Shown: positions 49,536 to 58,691 of the stretch, piece after piece
Layout of the letters: every line of letters starts with the position of its first letter
How positions within the stretch are numbered: the stretch's first letter is position 1
Assembly: GCA_035490535.1 (NCBI GenBank)
Contig: DATHCP010000003.1
Coordinates: 4,467-68,466 of the forward strand
Reading direction: 5' to 3'
Source: Actinomycetota bacterium
GTDB taxonomy: Bacteria > Actinomycetota > UBA4738 > HRBIN12
Length of the DNA: 64,000 bases
Made by a program: the position numbers and the translations under genes
The notes under the pieces: generated by a model
Seen by the model: only the letters and a program-made list of their open reading frames with translations
Told to the model about the DNA's origin: nothing
Database searches by the model: none

Positions 49536-50483
49536 CTAGGCCGGCTCGGCCACCCAGCGCATCGGGTCGCCGGCCCCGAGGTCCTCCACCCCGGCGTCGA
49601 TCAGCGCGCCGGCCACGAGCGTGCGCCGGTGCGCGGCGAACGTCAGGACGTGCGCGATCATGCCGCCGTAGGTGAAGACCTCCGGGTCCTCGCAGATCGC
49701 GTCCACGAAGGTCTCGTCCAGGCGCCCCTCGTCCCCGACCGTCCGGACCCGCTCGAGGAAGGCGGATCCTTCCCGGTCGAGGCGTGCCCGCATCGATGCG
49801 ATCGACTCATGCTGCTCGACGTCCCAGTCGTACGGTCGGCCGTCGATCGCCGCGTTCCACATCGCCATCTGCCCGACCAGCCGCGACAGGAGCGACCGCA
49901 ACGTCGGATCGTCGTCGACCCCTTCGACCGAGATCCGGATCGGCTCGTCGAGCTGCGCGTCGCTCAGCGTGCCGGCACGCGTGATCATCTCGCCGACGAG
50001 CCAGACGTGGTGCTCCACCATGCGGTTCAGCAGGTCCATCGGACCCTCCTTCGTTCGTGCGGGCAGCCGCAGGCTGCCCGGCGGATGGAAGTGCACGCCG
50101 CTCGGCGCGTCCAACTGGAACCGGCGGGGCTCGCGTCGCCACGCGGCGGGCGCGGCGCCGTAGGAACGGGCGAAGGCCCGCGTGAACGCCTCGTTCGAGC
50201 CGTAGCCGGCCTCGATCGCGACGTCCAGGACGGAGCGATCCGTCGTCACCAGCCGGTAGGCGGCCCGCTCCAGGAGCACCCGCCGGCGGAACGCGCCCGG
50301 CGGCTCACCGGCCGTCGCCGCCACCACGCGATCGAGGTGGTACCGCGAGAGGTGGACGCGGGCGGCAAGGTCGGCTCCGGAGGCCTCGTGATCGTCCAGG
50401 GCCGAGGACAGGACCTCGACGAAGGAGCGGAAGGTGTCGGTCGCGGTGCTCACGTCCCCATCCTCGTCGAGTCGCCCGTTCAC
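49536..50483 (-). CDS. AraC-family transcriptional regulator fused to a DinB/YfiT-like C-terminal domain
   Basis: 315 aa. The N-terminal HTH_AraC region is LSRYHLDRVV...LDVAIEAGYGSNEAFTRAFARSYGAAP. The C-terminal region of about 170 aa has a four-helix-bundle-like His-containing segment (VEHHVWLVGEM...). It is divergent from the putative RiPP operon. Confidence 0.75.
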   Translation of the reverse strand: MNGRLDEDGDVSTATDTFRSFVEVLSSALDDHEASGADLAARVHLSRYHLDRVVAATAGEPPGAFRRRVLLERAAYRLVTTDRSVLDVAIEAGYGSNEAFTRAFARSYGAAPAAWRREPRRFQLDAPSGVHFHPPGSLRLPARTKEGPMDLLNRMVEHHVWLVGEMITRAGTLSDAQLDEPIRISVEGVDDDPTLRSLLSRLVGQMAMWNAAIDGRPYDWDVEQHESIASMRARLDREGSAFLERVRTVGDEGRLDETFVDAICEDPEVFTYGGMIAHVLTFAAHRRTLVAGALIDAGVEDLGAGDPMRWVAEPA

Positions 50484-50524
50484 GGCTTGATCGGCGTTGC
50501 GCTTCCCGCGGAACCGACCTCCGA

Positions 50525-50553
50525 TTGACCCCCCGGGCAGCGCCGACTAGCGT
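50525..50553 (+). promoter_or_regulatory. Candidate sigma70/SigA-type promoter (TTGACC-17 nt-TAGCGT) for the precursor-methyltransferase operon
   Basis: TTGACC at 50525-50530 and a TANNNT-type -10 (TAGCGT) at 50548-50553 lie about 30 nt upstream of the ATG at 50583, which carries a GGGAGGGGAG RBS. This is sequence inspection only. Confidence 0.35.
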
Positions 50554-50582
50554 TCCCTCCGAGCGCAGCGGGAGGGGAGCCC

Positions 50583-50873
50583 ATGTCGAAGGCAGATGAC
50601 GACGAGGTCTCACTCGTCGACTTCGTGAACGACCTTGCCGACGATCCGGAGCTGGAAGCGCTCTTCGATCTCGAGCCCATCGCGGTGATGATGGAGCGCG
50701 GCCTGAGCGTCGATCAGCAGGCGCTGCTGATGGGCGGCACCGCCGGCGAGATCCGCGACGAGCTGAACCGCGAGCTCGAGAGCAGCGACGCGACCGGCGC
50801 GGTCGCGTTCGTGATCAAGATGCTGAAGCCGGTCGTCATCAAGATGAAGCCGGCGCCGGGTGGCGACCACTGA
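50583..50873 (+). CDS. Candidate RiPP precursor peptide (acidic helical leader plus hydrophobic core with duplicated VIKM(L)KP motif); putative split-borosin substrate
   Basis: 96 aa with a strong RBS. The leader is MSKADDDEVSLVDFVNDLADDPELEALFDLEPIAVMMERGLSVDQQALLMGGTAGEIRDELNRELESSDATG, and the core is AVAFVIKMLKPVVIKMKPAPGGDH. Its stop overlaps the start of the downstream TP-methylase-fold gene. Confidence 0.55.
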   Translation: MSKADDDEVSLVDFVNDLADDPELEALFDLEPIAVMMERGLSVDQQALLMGGTAGEIRDELNRELESSDATGAVAFVIKMLKPVVIKMKPAPGGDH

Positions 50874-51618
50874 GCGGCCCGTCACCGGCTCCCTGACGAT
50901 CGTCGGCTCCGGGATCCGGCCGGGGCTGCACACCACGAGCGAGGCGCGGGCCAGGATCGTGCGCGCCGACAAGGTCCTCTACCTGCTCGCCGAGCCCGCT
51001 CCCACCACGTGGATCGAGAAGCTCAACCCCTCGGCCGAGTCGCTGACGCATCTGTACGAGTCCGACCGCACGCACGACGAGGTCTACGAGGCGCTCGTGG
51101 AGGCGATGCTCGTTCCGGTCCGTGCGGGACTCGACGTCTGCATGGTGACGTACGGCAACCCCGCGGTGTTCGACGAGTCCTCGCACGAGGCGGTCCGGCG
51201 GGCGCGCGCCGAGGGCTATCCGGCGAAGATCCTTCCGGGGGTCTCGGCGCTCGACTGCCTGTTCGTCGACCTCGGCGTCGACCCCGGCCGCCACGGGCTG
51301 CAGACCTACGAGGGGTCCGACTTCGCGCTCGGGGACTTCACGCCGAACGTGCGCGTGCCGCTGGTCCTGTGGCAGATCAGCGTGATCGGGAACACCCGCA
51401 CCGGCGGCTCCGTGAACGTCGACGGGCTGCGCGTCCTCGCCGATCGGCTGGCCGAGCACTACGGCGCCGACCACGAGGTGACGATCTACGAGGCCACCCC
51501 GTTCCCGGTCGGCCGCCCGCTGATCGAACGCTGTGCCGTGCGCGCGCTGCCCGAGGCGGGCGTGACCGGGCTCTCCACCCTCTACGTGCCGCCGCTCGTG
51601 GTTCGGGCGGCCGGCTGA
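50860..51618 (+). CDS. Tetrapyrrole-methylase-fold SAM-dependent methyltransferase, OphMA/SonM-like (putative peptide backbone alpha-N-methyltransferase)
   Basis: 252 aa with a GTG start 14 nt inside the precursor ORF. The motifs SLTIVGSGI, GLDVCMVTYGNPAVF, ILPGVSALDCLFVDLGVDP, GLQTYEGSDF, LVLWQISVIGN, EHYGADHEVTIYEA and GLSTLYVPPL align, by my recollection, with the borosin N-methyltransferase catalytic domain (OphMA: GLDVVGVFYGHPGVF, LPGVSAEDCLFADLCIDP, CLTYEASDF, LVLFQVGCVGI, EYGAEHPVVHY, VSTFYIPP). Membership of the TP_methylase fold is secure. The borosin sub-assignment is inference. Confidence 0.65.
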   Translation: MATTERPVTGSLTIVGSGIRPGLHTTSEARARIVRADKVLYLLAEPAPTTWIEKLNPSAESLTHLYESDRTHDEVYEALVEAMLVPVRAGLDVCMVTYGNPAVFDESSHEAVRRARAEGYPAKILPGVSALDCLFVDLGVDPGRHGLQTYEGSDFALGDFTPNVRVPLVLWQISVIGNTRTGGSVNVDGLRVLADRLAEHYGADHEVTIYEATPFPVGRPLIERCAVRALPEAGVTGLSTLYVPPLVVRAAG

Positions 51619-51742
51619 GCGAGGCGGCGGCTGCGGCGCACCACCGGGCTTCGCGCGGCTGGGCGGCAGCGGCCTCTCGGGAGATGCCTGGCGCTCCTAT
51701 ACTCGCGGCCTGAGCCAGCCGGCGTCCCGAGGAGGACTCGTC

Positions 51743-52012
51743 ATGCCCCAGATCATCGTCACCGCGGCGGTCAACGACGTCGAGGAGTGGTTGAAGTTCA
51801 AGGCCGAGATGGTTCCCGCGATGTCGTCGGTCGCGTCGGACGGGGCCAGTTACGTCGCGGCGGATGGCAGCAACCAGGTCGCCAGCACGTGGGACGTTCC
51901 CGACATGGAAGCCTTCCAGGCAGCCCAGGGCTCCTTCTCTGCGGAGCTGGCCGAGATGGCGGAGCGAGCAGGCATGATCCGCTCGACCATGGTGGTGTAC
52001 GTCAAGAAGTAG
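51743..52012 (+). CDS. Small hypothetical protein (89 aa), possibly independently transcribed
   Basis: It has an excellent RBS (GAGGAGGACTCGTC ATG), a TATACT -10-like hexamer at 51698-51703 and a soluble acidic protein sequence (MPQIIVTAAVNDVEEWLKFKAE...). No domain recognised. Confidence 0.5.
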   Translation: MPQIIVTAAVNDVEEWLKFKAEMVPAMSSVASDGASYVAADGSNQVASTWDVPDMEAFQAAQGSFSAELAEMAERAGMIRSTMVVYVKK

Positions 52013-52069
52013 CCCTCCGTCTCTGCTCGGGACCGCGCGACGATCGGTGCGTGAGACGAGCTGCACCGC

Positions 52070-52425
52070 GGGGAGTAGCTCTGGGTCGAGGAGCGGATCA
52101 CCGAGCTGCTGGACTCCGACGACCGCCGCTCGCTCTTCGCGCAGGCGTGTGCGTCCGGAACCAGTCGAAGTTCTACGACCGTTTCGACGCGGTGGTCCTG
52201 CTCAGCGCGCCTGTGGACGTGATCCTCGACCGGGTCGCGCGCAGAACGACGAACGACTACGGCGGGTCGCCGGTGGAGCGAGCGATGATCGTCGATGACC
52301 TCGCCACGTTCGAACCGCTGCTCCGGCAGGGGTGCACGCACGAGCTGGACGCGAGCCGGCCGTTGGATGAGCTCGTCGCCGACCTGATCGAGATCGCATC
52401 CGATGACGACGGCACCCGCGTGTAG
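52070..52425 (+). pseudogene. Frameshifted remnant of an NMP-kinase/AAA-type P-loop kinase (lacks the P-loop N-terminus)
   Basis: Two adjacent frames read LWVEERITELLDSDDRRSLFAQA and then CVRNQSKFYDRFDAVVLLSAPVDVILDRVARRTTNDYGGSPVERAMIVDDL...ELVADLIEIA. This is kinase-like C-terminal sequence with no Walker A, and the preceding part of track ORF 51787..52425 is shadow over the 89-aa gene. Confidence 0.4.
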
Positions 52426-52455: not shown

Positions 52456-53130
52456 GTGAAGCTGCTCCTCACCTCCGCCGGCATCAAGAACCCGAGCATC
52501 CAGGACGCGCTGGTCGGCCTCCTGAGCAAACCGATCGCCGAGTCCGACGCCCTTTGCATCCCCACCGCGGGATACGGGCATCCGATGGGAACCCCGGCCG
52601 GCGCATGGCGGTTCATCACCGGCAACGCCGGCACCCCCATGTGTGAGCTGGGGTGGAGGTCGGTCGGGGTGCTGGAGCTGACGGCCCTGCCCAGCATCGG
52701 GGAGGAGCGTTGGATCCCTTGGGTCCGCGATGCCGACGTCCTGCTGGCGAACGGCGGCGACGCCCTCTACCTCGCTCACTGGATGCGGGAGTCCGGGCTG
52801 GCCGATCTCCTGCCGTCCCTCGACGGGACGGTATGGGCGGGATTGAACGCCGGGAGCATGGTGATGACGCCCCGTATCGGAGTGGACTTCATGGGGTGGG
52901 AGCCGCCCGGCGGCCTCGACGAGGCGCTCGGGTTCGTCGACTTCTCGATCTTCCCCCATGTGGACCATCCGGATCTTCCCGAGAACACGATGGCTGCAGC
53001 CGAGCGATGGGCGGCGGGCATCCCCGGGCCCGCATACGCGATCGACGACGACACCGCGATCGCGGTGACCGAGGGCTCCGTCGAGGTCGTCTCCGAGGGC
53101 CAGTGGAAGCGGTTCACTCCGACCGGATAG
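52456..53130 (+). CDS. Peptidase E / S51 family (type 1 glutamine amidotransferase-like) dipeptidase
   Basis: GTG start with a GGGAGGACG RBS. MKLLLTSAG, VLLANGGDALYL, AGLNAGSMVMTP (the nucleophile Ser region) and FSIFPHVDH (His) parallel E. coli PepE (LLLLSNS, IIIVGGGNTFQL, GWSAGANLACP, INPHF). Confidence 0.75.
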   Translation: MKLLLTSAGIKNPSIQDALVGLLSKPIAESDALCIPTAGYGHPMGTPAGAWRFITGNAGTPMCELGWRSVGVLELTALPSIGEERWIPWVRDADVLLANGGDALYLAHWMRESGLADLLPSLDGTVWAGLNAGSMVMTPRIGVDFMGWEPPGGLDEALGFVDFSIFPHVDHPDLPENTMAAAERWAAGIPGPAYAIDDDTAIAVTEGSVEVVSEGQWKRFTPTG

Positions 53131-53139
53131 CGTGAGCCG

Positions 53140-53790
53140 GTGGAACGGTCGGAGCGGTCCTTCTGGGCCACGTGGCACGACGACTACGACGACCCGGGCT
53201 CGGACCTCTCCCAACGTCTGATCGCCGTCCAGCGCCGACTCTCCGACGCGATCGACGCGCGGGCTGGCGAGGTCCGCGTCATCAGCGCCTGCGCGGGGCA
53301 GGCACACGACGTCCTCGGCGTGCTCGAGGGCCACCCGCGTGCGTCGGAGGTGCACGCCTGGCTCGTCGAGTCCGACGATCACAACGCCGGGGTCGCGCGT
53401 CGTCGAGCCGAAGCCGCGGGCCTGACGCAGGTTCGCGTGCTCCACGCGGACGCCGGGATCACCGGCACCTACCGGGACGCGGTGCCCGCCGACGTCCTGC
53501 TGCTCTGCGGGATCTTCGGCAACGTCACCGACGAGGACCTCCGTCGGCTCGTGACGAACGCCTCGAGGCTGTGTGCACCGCACGCGACGGTGTTGTGGAC
53601 GCGGCATCGGCGTGAGCCCGATCGGTCGGAGGACGTCCGAGCGTGGTTCGACGAGGCGGGCTACGAGGAGATCGCGTTCGATTCGCCCGGACCGGACCGG
53701 TTCGCCCTGGGGACGGTCCGCCTGACGGCGCCGCCCTTGCCGTACACACCCGATCTCCGGCTCTTCGCGTTCAGGGTGTGGGAGGGGTGA
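53140..53790 (+). CDS. Putative class I SAM-dependent methyltransferase
   Basis: 216 aa, 10 nt after the S51 gene. VISACAGQAHDVLGVLE, VLHADAGI and DVLLLCGIFGNVTDEDL resemble a Rossmann-like MTase core. The assignment is moderate. Confidence 0.5.
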   Translation: MERSERSFWATWHDDYDDPGSDLSQRLIAVQRRLSDAIDARAGEVRVISACAGQAHDVLGVLEGHPRASEVHAWLVESDDHNAGVARRRAEAAGLTQVRVLHADAGITGTYRDAVPADVLLLCGIFGNVTDEDLRRLVTNASRLCAPHATVLWTRHRREPDRSEDVRAWFDEAGYEEIAFDSPGPDRFALGTVRLTAPPLPYTPDLRLFAFRVWEG

Positions 53791-55943: not shown

Positions 55944-56369
55944 CTAGTCCTCGTCGGGACGGCGCAGCTGCTTCGTCCGCGAGCGCCGCTTCTTGTCGGC
56001 CAGCCGGCGTTCGTTCGCGGCCCGGCTCGGCCTCGTTGCCTTCCGCGACGGGGGTGGCGGCGCGATCGCGCGGGCCAGCGTCTCCGCGAGCCGGTCGCGG
56101 GCCGCCTCGCGGTTCTGCAGCTGCGAGCGGCGTGAGGAGGCGACGATCGTCAGCACGCCGTCGTGGAGGCGCCGGCTCAGACGTTCCAGCGCGCGGGCGC
56201 GCTGCACGGGTCCGAGCGAGGGCGACCGCGCGACGTCGAAGCTCAGCTCCACGCGCGAGTCGGCCGTGTTCACACCCTGGCCGCCCGGGCCGGACGCGTG
56301 GCTGAACCGCCACCGGAGCTCACGCTCCGGGATCAGGACCGAACGCGACACCCGCAGCGGACCTGCCAC
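55944..56369 (-). CDS. arfB: Alternative ribosome-rescue factor / peptidyl-tRNA hydrolase ArfB
   Basis: GTG start chosen at 56369 (VAGPLRVSRSVLIPERELRWRFSHASGPGGQGVNT). It has a GGQ motif, and a basic C-terminal tail (RRLADKKRRSRTKQLRR) typical of ArfB. The longer track ORF would overlap the divergent gene at 56452. Confidence 0.8.
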   Translation of the reverse strand: MAGPLRVSRSVLIPERELRWRFSHASGPGGQGVNTADSRVELSFDVARSPSLGPVQRARALERLSRRLHDGVLTIVASSRRSQLQNREAARDRLAETLARAIAPPPPSRKATRPSRAANERRLADKKRRSRTKQLRRPDED

Positions 56370-56451
56370 GACCGCAGTATGCCCGTCGGTCGCGACGAAC
56401 CAGGGACGAACGACCCCAACCGTGGCGGGGGGCACCCGGAACGATGGCGCC

Positions 56452-56856
56452 ATGACCGGAACGCGCACCGTGGGGCTGATCGCGATCAAGGCCGTGCATT
56501 CGGTCCTGTTCTTCGCGATCGGTGGCTGCTTGGTGTACTTCTTGATCGCCGGGTTCGCGCGGCGTTCGGATCGACGCGCGGCGCTCGCCGGCGCCGTGGT
56601 CGCCGGGGAGGCAGCGATCTACGCCGTGAACGGGATGCGCTGCCCCCTCACGGATCTGGCCGAGGACCTCGGCGCCGAGGATGGCTCGGTCGCCGACATC
56701 TACCTGCCCGGGCCACTGCGGCGGAACCTGCCGGTCATCACCGGTCCGATGTTCGCGCTCGCCCTCGCGCTGCACGCGCGCAACCTCGTGCGGGCCGGTC
56801 CATGGCCTACGATGGACCGACCCGACCGAAGGAGCCCGCGATGCGATGGATCGTGA
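56452..56856 (+). CDS. Hypothetical membrane protein
   Basis: Start at the ATG at 56452. It has three TM helices (LIAIKAVHSVLFFAIGGCLVYFLIAGF, ALAGAVVAGEAAIYAV, ITGPMFALALALHA). Confidence 0.45.
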   Translation: MTGTRTVGLIAIKAVHSVLFFAIGGCLVYFLIAGFARRSDRRAALAGAVVAGEAAIYAVNGMRCPLTDLAEDLGAEDGSVADIYLPGPLRRNLPVITGPMFALALALHARNLVRAGPWPTMDRPDRRSPRCDGS

Positions 56857-57213: not shown

Positions 57214-57585
57214 TCAGAGCTGCGCGAGCAGCTCGATCGGGAACGGCGGCTGCGCGAGCGGCCGAACCGCGAGCCGGAACAGCAGCAGCGGGTTGTCGTC
57301 GCCGGCGGAGCGGTTCAGGTGCAGCTCGTCGCATCCGGTGCAACGGTGGATCAGCACCCATTCGCCGTCGCCGCGGACCGCGATCGCGATCGGCTCCATC
57401 AGCGACCCGCAGATCGCGGCGCGGTCGCCGGGATCGTCGTCGACGTGCCGGCTCCACAAGCAGTTCGGGCAGTGGTTGCGATGCGCCGAACCGACGGCGT
57501 CGGTGGAGACGTCCAGACGGCAATGGCCGCAACGGAACGAACGGAGCCGCTCGTCGCGGGGATGGCCGCGTCGGTCGCGTGCCAT
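57214..57585 (-). CDS. RNHCP domain-containing protein (Zn-ribbon-like)
   Basis: 123 aa. It contains the literal RNHCPNC motif plus flanking Cys pairs (CGHC...CPNC...CGSL...CTGC). Confidence 0.7.
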   Translation of the reverse strand: MARDRRGHPRDERLRSFRCGHCRLDVSTDAVGSAHRNHCPNCLWSRHVDDDPGDRAAICGSLMEPIAIAVRGDGEWVLIHRCTGCDELHLNRSAGDDNPLLLFRLAVRPLAQPPFPIELLAQL

Positions 57586-57800
57586 GGGTGGACCTCCGGG
57601 TAGATGGTGGACACAGGGCGCCGTGGCCCGGAGGTTCGGATCGCCCTAGCGGGCGTGCGAACGGGTGCCGAGGCACGACGGAACGACCACCGTCACAGCG
57701 ATCATCAAGCCACCGCCTCCCGTTCTGGCCGCGCGTGTCCGCGGCGGATGCGACCGTACCAACCGAGAGCCCGGCGCGCAACGGTGTGTACGGTGAACCG

Positions 57801-58691
57801 ATGGGAGCCCGGTCGCCCGAACGCGTCGAGGTCTCGCGGCCCGACAAGCTGCTGTGGCCCGCGCTCGGCATCACGAAGCGCCGCTACGTCGATTACCTGG
57901 AGGCGGTCGCGCCCCGCATGGTGCCGTGGCTGCGCGGCCGGCCGCTCACGGTGGTGCGCGGCCCCGACGGCGTCGACGGTGAGCGGTACTTCCAGAAGGC
58001 CGCCTCGAAGCACACGCCGCCCTGGATCCGCACGGTGCGGATCCCGGCGCCCAGCGCGAAGCGCGACGTCGACTACGTGGTCTGCGACTCGGCGGCGGCG
58101 CTCGCCTGGCTCGGCAACCAGGCCGCCCTCGAGTTCCACCCCGCGCCGGTGCGCGCCGACCGGCTCGATCGCCTCGATCTGCTGACCGTGGACCTCGATC
58201 CACCCGAGGGTGCGTTCGAAGCCGCCGCCGAGGTCGCGCTGGAGGTGCTCGAGGTGTTCGGGGAGCTCGGCATGGAGGCCGGCGTGAAGACGACGGGCGG
58301 CAAGGGCCTGCACGTCGTGGCGCCGATCGAGCGGCGGCTGTCGCAGCCGGAGCTCCGCGCAGCCGCGTCGGCGCTCGCGCGGATCGTCGAGGGCCGGATG
58401 CCCGGGAAGATCACGGAGGAGTTCCGTAAGGCCGACCGCGGCGGGCGCGTGCTCCTCGACCCCTCGCGCAACGGCGCGGGCGCGACGATCGTAGCCCCGT
58501 ACTCGCCGCGCGAACGTCCGGAGGGCACCGTCTCCTTCCCGCTCACGCCCGAGCAGCTCGGCTCGGTCCGGCCGGCGGACTTCACGATCGCGACGGCGCC
58601 GGGGCTGCTCGACGGCCCGGGGCCGCGCCGCTGGGACGCGCTCGTCTCGGCGCGGTCCCGCGTACCGAGGGAGCTCCTGACCCGGAAGTAG
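57801..58691 (+). CDS. Stand-alone LigD-type NHEJ polymerase/primase domain protein (PolDom)
   Basis: Start at the ATG at 57801. RPDKLLWPALGITKRRYVDYLEAVAPRMVPWLRGRPL, ERYFQK, DLDP (catalytic Asp residues) and TTGGKGLHVV are archaeo-eukaryotic-primase-type LigD Pol motifs. Confidence 0.8.
   Translation: MGARSPERVEVSRPDKLLWPALGITKRRYVDYLEAVAPRMVPWLRGRPLTVVRGPDGVDGERYFQKAASKHTPPWIRTVRIPAPSAKRDVDYVVCDSAAALAWLGNQAALEFHPAPVRADRLDRLDLLTVDLDPPEGAFEAAAEVALEVLEVFGELGMEAGVKTTGGKGLHVVAPIERRLSQPELRAAASALARIVEGRMPGKITEEFRKADRGGRVLLDPSRNGAGATIVAPYSPRERPEGTVSFPLTPEQLGSVRPADFTIATAPGLLDGPGPRRWDALVSARSRVPRELLTRK

Follow-up and report, generated by a model that had tools for sequence, protein, structure and literature searches.

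In a 64-kb stretch of DNA (positions 1-64000, hereafter the window), which the names of its source records attribute to a metagenome-assembled genome (MAG) of an uncultured soil actinobacterium (Actinomycetota), we analysed two overlapping genes, one for a small putative precursor peptide and the other for a methyltransferase related to the borosin peptide alpha-N-methyltransferases. The coordinates of both genes, their parts and their neighbours are given in Table 1. The initial annotation of this locus had described an open reading frame (ORF) of 96 amino acids (aa) with a strong ribosome binding site, the stop codon of which lies 14 nucleotides (nt) inside the GTG start of a 252-aa protein. 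Our reading agrees on each count: the GGAGG of the Shine-Dalgarno-like GGGAGGGGAG ends 7 nt 5' of the ATG at 50583, and the overlap follows directly from the ORF coordinates. The guanine-cytosine (GC) content of the window is 71.5%, and numerous overlapping ORFs are found on both strands, as expected at such a composition. Nevertheless, the GC fractions at the first, second and third codon positions (0.71/0.34/0.90 in the precursor ORF and 0.72/0.49/0.95 in the methyltransferase ORF) suggest that the two ORFs are real genes and not artefacts of GC-rich DNA.

Table 1. Features of the gene pair and its surroundings in the window (coordinates of genes include the stop codon where stated).
Feature	Position	Strand	Basis or remark
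Ribosome binding site, Shine-Dalgarno-like GGGAGGGGAG	50570..50579	+	Sequence reading; ends 3 nt short of the precursor ATG
Precursor peptide gene, SonA-like	50583..50873 (stop included)	+	ATG ORF, 96 aa
Borosin binding domain (BBD; leader/recognition domain), residues 11-67	50613..50783	+	Five predicted helices (AlphaFold2), Foldseek
Predicted core, residues 73-96, AVAFVIKMLKPVVIKMKPAPGGDH, hydrophobic and basic	50799..50870	+	Disordered in the model; family alignment
Tandem 8-codon duplication in the core, FVIKMLKP / VVIKMKP	50806..50846	+	Direct repeat D1
Overlap of precursor stop and methyltransferase start, 14 nt (putative translational coupling)	50860..50873	+	ORF reading
Borosin-type peptide alpha-N-methyltransferase gene, no fused BBD	50860..51618 (stop included)	+	GTG start, 252 aa
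Active-site loop and beginning of the helix: Y66 (= SonM Y58), R70, H72 (= SonM R67 position), Y76 (= SonM Y71)	51055..51087	+	HMMER alignment to SonM, family alignments
Y98 (= SonM Y93, SAM-gating tyrosine)	51151..51153	+	Alignment
Class III nucleotidyl cyclase - AAA/STAND ATPase - TPR protein gene, 1097 aa	46191..49484	-	Pfam Guanylate_cyc 4e-23, AAA_16 2e-19, TPR_12, TPR_MalT
AraC-family helix-turn-helix protein gene, weak DinB_2-like C-terminal match	49536..50483	-	Pfam HTH_18 6e-20; DinB_2 0.0012, below cut-off
89-aa ORF, no family match	51743..52012	+	ORF list, Pfam
S51-family peptidase gene	52456..53130	+	Pfam; beside the pair in this window only
Methyltransferase-like ORF	53140..53790	+	Methyltransf_25 E 0.0013, below cut-off

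The 252-aa protein is clearly homologous to the borosin enzymes. In a phmmer search against the PDB it matched SonM with an E-value of 8e-49 (query residues 10-246), dbOphMA/OphMA with about 1e-45 (residues 5-250) and MroMA with 2.6e-37, whereas the best-ranked tetrapyrrole methylase, a uroporphyrin methylase, reached only 0.024. In terms of these E-values, the borosin enzymes outscore CobA-type methylases by about 46 orders of magnitude. Pfam detected TP_methylase alone (7e-19) with no further domain, and the YabN and precorrin models of NCBIfam remained far under their cut-offs (14-19 bits for the precorrin models versus cut-offs of 163-391). The AlphaFold2 (AF2) model of the enzyme, computed with 35 homologs, had a predicted local distance difference test (pLDDT) score of 81, and its top 50 PDB matches in Foldseek were all borosin methyltransferases; the alignment with SonM covered 242 columns at 40% identity, with a template modelling (TM) score of 0.89 and a root-mean-square deviation (rmsd) of 2.0 Å. 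The five motifs quoted in the initial annotation all occur verbatim in the translation, and its judgement that the enzyme resembles OphMA far more than CobA or RsmI is upheld by these searches and by the fold. The borosin-type methyltransferase family is large, comprising 1,244 representatives (50% clustering) at an E-value of 1e-10 or better, and at least 120 clusters share at least 60% identity with the methyltransferase in the window.

The N-terminal part of the 96-aa product is a BBD of the SonA type. Residues 1-72 contain 20 Asp and Glu versus four Lys and Arg (isoelectric point, pI, 4.05), and the AF2 model, computed with 57 sequences, has five helices (residues 11-20, 22-30, 32-39, 43-51 and 54-67; pLDDT 84-89 for residues 11-60) followed by a disordered tail, consistent with the acidic, helix-prone leader and short hydrophobic tail proposed earlier. 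The link to SonA surfaced only with profile searches and not with single-sequence searches. As a single query, the precursor matched no Pfam family, gave chance matches only in phmmer against the PDB, and hit nothing in NCBIfam except a sub-threshold IniB_NTERM model (E 0.006). A five-sequence profile ranked the SonA chains first in the PDB (E about 0.01), and a profile of 31 family members recovered all seven distinct SonA sequences over the BBD with E-values of 8e-13 to 2e-12, the next match being the LigA-like domain of gallate dioxygenase (5e-6). In Foldseek, the first 30 PDB matches of the precursor model were SonA chains plus LigA, and the SonA chains were aligned over 47-51 columns with an rmsd of 1.5-1.8 Å and a TM score of up to 0.83; the Foldseek E-values were weak because the domain is small. 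The structural relationship between the BBD and LigA has already been published (PMC8429565).

The remainder of the precursor, the predicted core AVAFVIKMLKPVVIKMKPAPGGDH, contains four Lys and one Asp (pI 10.0) and is modelled without secondary structure (pLDDT 43-52). In family alignments it falls into the variable C-terminal core region, and it consists of the family motif plus a 6-residue insertion made by tandem duplication; the two units of the repeat (50806-50822 and 50830-50846) are 17 nt long, 88% identical and spaced by 24 nt. In four close homologs of the precursor (P0002-P0005), the leader hardly varies and the tail diverges, and the uncorrected ratio of non-synonymous to synonymous differences (pN/pS) was 0.4-0.5 in the leader and about 0.8 in the core. 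A conserved leader with a variable core is the usual pattern for peptides made by the ribosome and modified after translation (RiPPs). The close clade has short cores with a basic end motif (e.g., VVFRVKMG, IIIMVKMR, AYVIRMG and VYVIKIKMK), while more distant relatives carry long beta-branched cores such as AAFRVIVTIIVTVTF.

We also noticed a frameshift in the closest relatives of the window precursor, found at two of the loci compared (cited here by L numbers; L001:5890-6011 and L006:915-1030). In both, the Ile codon of the core motif FVIK has lost 1 nt, so that the precursors end in ...AVAFVSRRRSSSR and ...AVALVARRRSSSR, respectively; KKAILIKMTPAPGGG and KKAIVITMTPAPGGG can still be read in the old frame. 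The two loci differ by two nucleotides in the frameshifted stretch, and both differences change the amino acid in the old frame but are silent in the new one. These two sites hint at a new core that was born by frameshift and may now be under selection.

A neighbourhood search for homologous pairs, suggested at the outset, found them in related MAG and metagenome loci. We examined three MAG loci, obtained by scanning genome contigs with the single enzyme sequence, and 80 metagenome loci from an alignment-based scan, which was far more productive. Where the methyltransferase was at least 54% identical to the query and 260 nt or more were available upstream of it, a seven-sequence hidden Markov model of the precursor detected an ORF with a BBD and a core on the same strand, ending at the methyltransferase start, in all cases (57/57). 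The loci with no such ORF upstream were all distant (at most 50% identity) and had other architectures. As a rule, stop and start overlap by 4-14 nt or lie a few nt apart; among the relatives, for instance, the overlap is 11 nt in L002 and 4 nt in L003 and L005, and L004 has a 5-nt gap. Nine loci (L014, L016, L017, L018, L019, L020, L021, L033 and L037) carry two tandem precursors with different cores, e.g., VVFRVKMG plus IIIMVKMR, and one methyltransferase.

Two observations concern the wider family. The distant loci L071-L084 (e.g., L071:3033-3992) encode a 320-aa protein composed of an N-terminal LigA/BBD domain and a degenerate methyltransferase-like domain, in which the residues corresponding to SonM Y71 and Y93 are replaced by Thr and His, respectively, and R67 is lacking. 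The fusion gene lies directly 5' of a canonical methyltransferase gene, and several of these loci possess a third methyltransferase gene about 2 kb upstream. This is a different borosin architecture. A related BBD precursor of 78 aa with the core AAIRIRVIVTILVDF (P0300) was found in a cultured member of Actinomycetota, Baekduia alba DSM 104299, which could give an experimental handle on the family.

Taken together, the gene pair is very probably a Type IV ("split") borosin RiPP cassette. The methyltransferase stands alone with no fused domain and is homologous to SonM and OphMA, and the adjacent precursor carries a BBD and a variable hydrophobic core, which is the architecture of Type IV, defined by a precursor fused to a BBD and a methyltransferase encoded separately (PMC8429565; bioRxiv 10.1101/2021.12.24.474128; 10.1101/2024.01.09.574750). 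The split arrangement proposed in the initial annotation is thus supported by the enzyme match, by the SonA-type BBD in both profile and fold, and by the conservation of the pair. Its expectation of new chemistry space was overrated. The description of split borosins dates from 2021, when SonM/SonA and a pair from Streptomyces sp. NRRL S-118 were chosen as the first two systems for validation (PMC8429565), and Type IV is the commonest borosin type (one survey counted 746 among 947 sequences); a later survey predicted 2,699 methyltransferases with 3,064 precursors. The window pair therefore fits a known kind.

For docking, backbone N-methylation, the methylated sites, proteolytic maturation and regulation, we infer the following course. 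The 14-nt overlap would couple the translation of the two genes. The acidic five-helix BBD of the 96-aa precursor would dock on the separate 252-aa methyltransferase, which depends on S-adenosylmethionine (SAM) and is probably a homodimer as is SonM, and docking would put the flexible basic-hydrophobic core into the active-site cleft. Backbone amide nitrogens of hydrophobic residues (Val, Ile, Phe, Met and Leu) would then be methylated iteratively with SAM. The nitrogens of proline are not methylatable, and AVAFVIKMLKPVVIKM is the stretch where methylation is expected. Finally, a protease encoded elsewhere would set the short methylated cationic peptide free, with a divergently transcribed cyclase/AAA/TPR protein (see below) as the likely regulator.

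Among the characterised systems, SonM/SonA of Shewanella oneidensis MR-1 (PDB 7LTC/7LTE), from which the first bacterial borosin product, the linear 16-mer shewanellamide A, derives, shares most with the window pair: a separate methyltransferase of about 250-260 aa lacking a BBD, next to it a precursor of about 70-100 aa, in which a five-helix BBD at the N-terminus is followed by a core at the C-terminus, and the equivalents of Tyr58, Tyr71, Tyr93, Trp166 and Gln167. They differ in that Arg67 of SonM is His72 in the window, the loop between the equivalents of Tyr58 and Tyr71 is three residues shorter, the column of the 'top lock' partner Glu173 is variable in the clade of the window enzyme, and the core is basic and duplicated rather than YLVISHGNGD-like. 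In addition, the companion gene encodes a class III cyclase/AAA/TPR protein and not a GGDEF protein, for which published borosin clusters have been noted, and the host is a high-GC member of Actinomycetota known from a MAG. The catalytic domains of the fungal fused enzymes OphMA, dbOphMA and MroMA (Types I-II) are likewise homologous to the window enzyme (TM 0.88-0.89, about 40% identity), and the hydrophobic beta-branched character of their cores is shared; however, enzyme, clasp/BBD and core reside in one polypeptide of about 400 aa in these systems, as opposed to two genes here, and R72 of OphMA corresponds to His72. SspM and its precursor from Streptomyces sp. NRRL S-118 constitute, by their description, an actinobacterial Type IV pair in which a methyltransferase of 263 aa lies beside a short precursor (PMC8429565; bioRxiv 10.1101/2024.01.09.574750). 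LigA and LigA-like domains of extradiol and gallate dioxygenases (PF07746; 1bou_A in Foldseek) have the same small helical-bundle fold as the leader, but they cap a dioxygenase active site, whereas the domain in the window is a free-standing leader on a peptide core, paired with a methyltransferase. The tetrapyrrole methylases (CobA/CysG, CbiF/CobM; PF00590) share the class III SAM methyltransferase fold with the window enzyme, but their similarity is marginal and they have neither a peptide substrate nor a BBD partner.

The active site was compared with those of 120 close homologs and, more widely, of 150 family representatives. The borosin-specific Tyr and Arg residues had been expected to be conserved, and this held for the tyrosines but not for the arginine. 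Y66, Y76 and Y98 are the counterparts of SonM Y58, Y71 and Y93 (OphMA Y63, Y76 and Y98); in the close homologs the equivalents of Y58 and Y71 are invariant, and that of Y93 is Tyr in 119/120. The 'bottom lock' Trp and the neighbouring Gln (SonM W166 and Q167) are W171 and Q172 in LVLWQISVIG, both invariant in the 120 homologs.

Several observations, however, count against a functional borosin cassette. (i) The position of SonM R67 (OphMA R72), four residues before the second Tyr, is occupied by His72, and the same column in the 120 close homologs is Arg in only 20 and otherwise mostly His (32), Phe (29), Tyr (22) or Gln (15), although it is Arg in 138 of the 150 family representatives. In SonM, where R67 serves to close the "top lock" as well, R67A had no discernible activity and R67K was reduced about 100-fold (PMC8429565); the residue was again termed essential in a later report (PMC11751858). 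As the window enzyme carries His72 in place of a residue essential in SonM, homology alone is no guarantee of catalysis. (ii) No promoter or terminator site was found in a consensus scan of 50300-52100. (iii) No protease, exporter/transporter or extra tailoring gene is conserved beside the pair in the loci compared.

The assignment of the Arg column is unambiguous, because representatives with a short loop still show Arg there: many of those sharing the shorter loop of the query read Y-x-P-G-[KR]-x-R-x-x-T-Y, and the query clade reads Y-x-x-x-R-x-H-x-x-V-Y. Furthermore, the helix in the AF2 model begins exactly at residue 72, and His72 therefore stands at i-4 to Y76, like R67 to Y71. R70, located two residues before His72, is kept as Arg in 110/120 close homologs and is, judging from this alignment, a candidate stand-in for the lost Arg. 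We also considered substrate-assisted catalysis, in which a Lys or Arg of the core would replace the enzyme Arg, and rejected it; we found no complementarity between the two, as the Arg-keeping L010, L011 and L070 and a more distant group also have basic cores, and the apparent correlation between residue 67 and core type is confounded by phylogeny.

The replacement of Arg bears on what the enzyme does to its partner. It is conceivable, albeit improbable, that the two proteins are indeed enzyme and substrate but that the loss of Arg has abolished backbone-amide methylation, with side chains (e.g., Lys, Asp or Glu) or termini being methylated instead. Besides the His at the essential position and the variability of this column in the clade, the conserved Lys/Arg in the cores would suit such an activity, and SurM1, a borosin-type enzyme from Streptomyces, has been reported to methylate Asp/Glu of its precursor (bioRxiv 10.1101/2021.12.24.474128). 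On the other hand, the remaining backbone-contacting residues of SonM, namely the equivalents of Y58, Y71, W166 and Q167, are invariant and that of Y93 is nearly so, the fold is nearly identical to that of SonM, and the Arg-keeping members of the clade mentioned above have cores of the same type. We retain a backbone-methylating split borosin as the preferred interpretation.

The surroundings of the pair bear on a second alternative. The 1097-aa cyclase/AAA/TPR protein has homologs of about 1,100 aa that are divergent from and upstream of the precursor in L002-L005; usually present beside the pair (51 loci), it is the only conserved neighbour and is in every case transcribed divergently. A Pfam search of this protein showed no DNA-binding domain. 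We regard it as a probable regulator of the pair. With a signalling-type protein as the sole conserved neighbour, the small protein might instead be a LigA-like accessory or regulatory subunit, and the methyltransferase would act on some other substrate, possibly within a cyclase/AAA/TPR signalling circuit. The structural kinship of the BBD to LigA capping domains (PMC8429565) and the lack of a conserved protease or exporter agree with this idea. We nevertheless consider it slightly less probable still than methylation outside the backbone, as the tail of the small protein looks like a RiPP core: it is hypervariable, located at the extreme C-terminus, rich in beta-branched hydrophobic residues, sometimes duplicated and present in tandem precursor copies, as in the characterised SonA. 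Moreover, SonA yields a natural product by way of proteases that were assayed separately (PMC10549244).

A chance ORF next to a methylase of the ordinary tetrapyrrole (CobA/CysG/precorrin), RsmI or diphthine kind, an explanation to which the generic TP_methylase, YabN and precorrin names of Pfam and NCBIfam and the many spurious ORFs of GC-rich DNA might lead, is refuted by the PDB search (1e-48 for borosin enzymes versus 0.02 or worse for tetrapyrrole methylases, with the NCBIfam scores far below curated cut-offs), by the precursor profile with its conserved homologs and the coding-type third-position GC of the small ORF, by both folds including the SonA-type fold, and by the 57/57 conservation of the pair.

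The other genes near the split borosin pair appeared not to belong to it. The AraC-family gene sits between the cyclase/AAA/TPR gene and the precursor gene and has no counterpart in the other loci including L002-L005; it lies outside the conserved module and could have been inserted locally or act as an additional regulator. The 89-aa ORF, the S51-family peptidase gene and the methyltransferase-like ORF were considered as members of the cassette and rejected, as none of them recurs beside the pair elsewhere. Genes downstream of the pair differ by locus, encoding a histidine kinase, an amine oxidase, an alcohol dehydrogenase or a hydrolase-cyclase. Further downstream in the window are a gene for an RF-1-domain protein (55944..56489, minus strand) and one with a LigD primase-polymerase domain (57579..58691, plus strand), both of which also lie downstream in L001 and L002; thus, the wider region is syntenic and the stretch just 3' of the methyltransferase gene has been exchanged. 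Scans with Rfam (gathering threshold) and for transfer and transfer-messenger RNAs gave no match in the whole 64-kb window.

It is attractive to speculate that a large, almost entirely uncultured subfamily of split borosins in soil Actinomycetota has a rewired active site, in which Arg gave way to His, Phe, Tyr or Gln and its role was taken by the upstream Arg or by Lys/Arg of the core. Its products would be cationic peptides of very short length with methylated backbones, and a dedicated cyclase/STAND/TPR sensor would control their formation. We regard this scenario as tentative and rather doubtful; if true, it would represent a borosin variant with a distinct mechanism and a peptide chemotype that is new. 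In the open-access literature, we found no borosin enzyme naturally lacking this Arg, and we came across no description of the clade's Arg loss, of the short basic cores or of the companion with cyclase, AAA and TPR domains.

Backbone N-methylation renders peptides protease-resistant and membrane-permeable, and to our knowledge the borosin enzymes are the only ribosomal route to this modification. The general picture of borosin biosynthesis is unchanged by the present locus, which belongs to a system type already described. Its novelty is modest, namely an added Type IV case with an active-site deviation common to a large uncultured clade, which is potentially interesting. The locus adds an actinobacterial case in which the core is unusual, being cationic and internally duplicated, and thereby widens the substrate space for enzyme engineering. 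The clade as a whole (at least 120 clusters sharing no less than 60% identity) is a natural experiment on the indispensability of SonM Arg67, because most of its members replace this residue and yet keep all other active-site residues and a cognate precursor.

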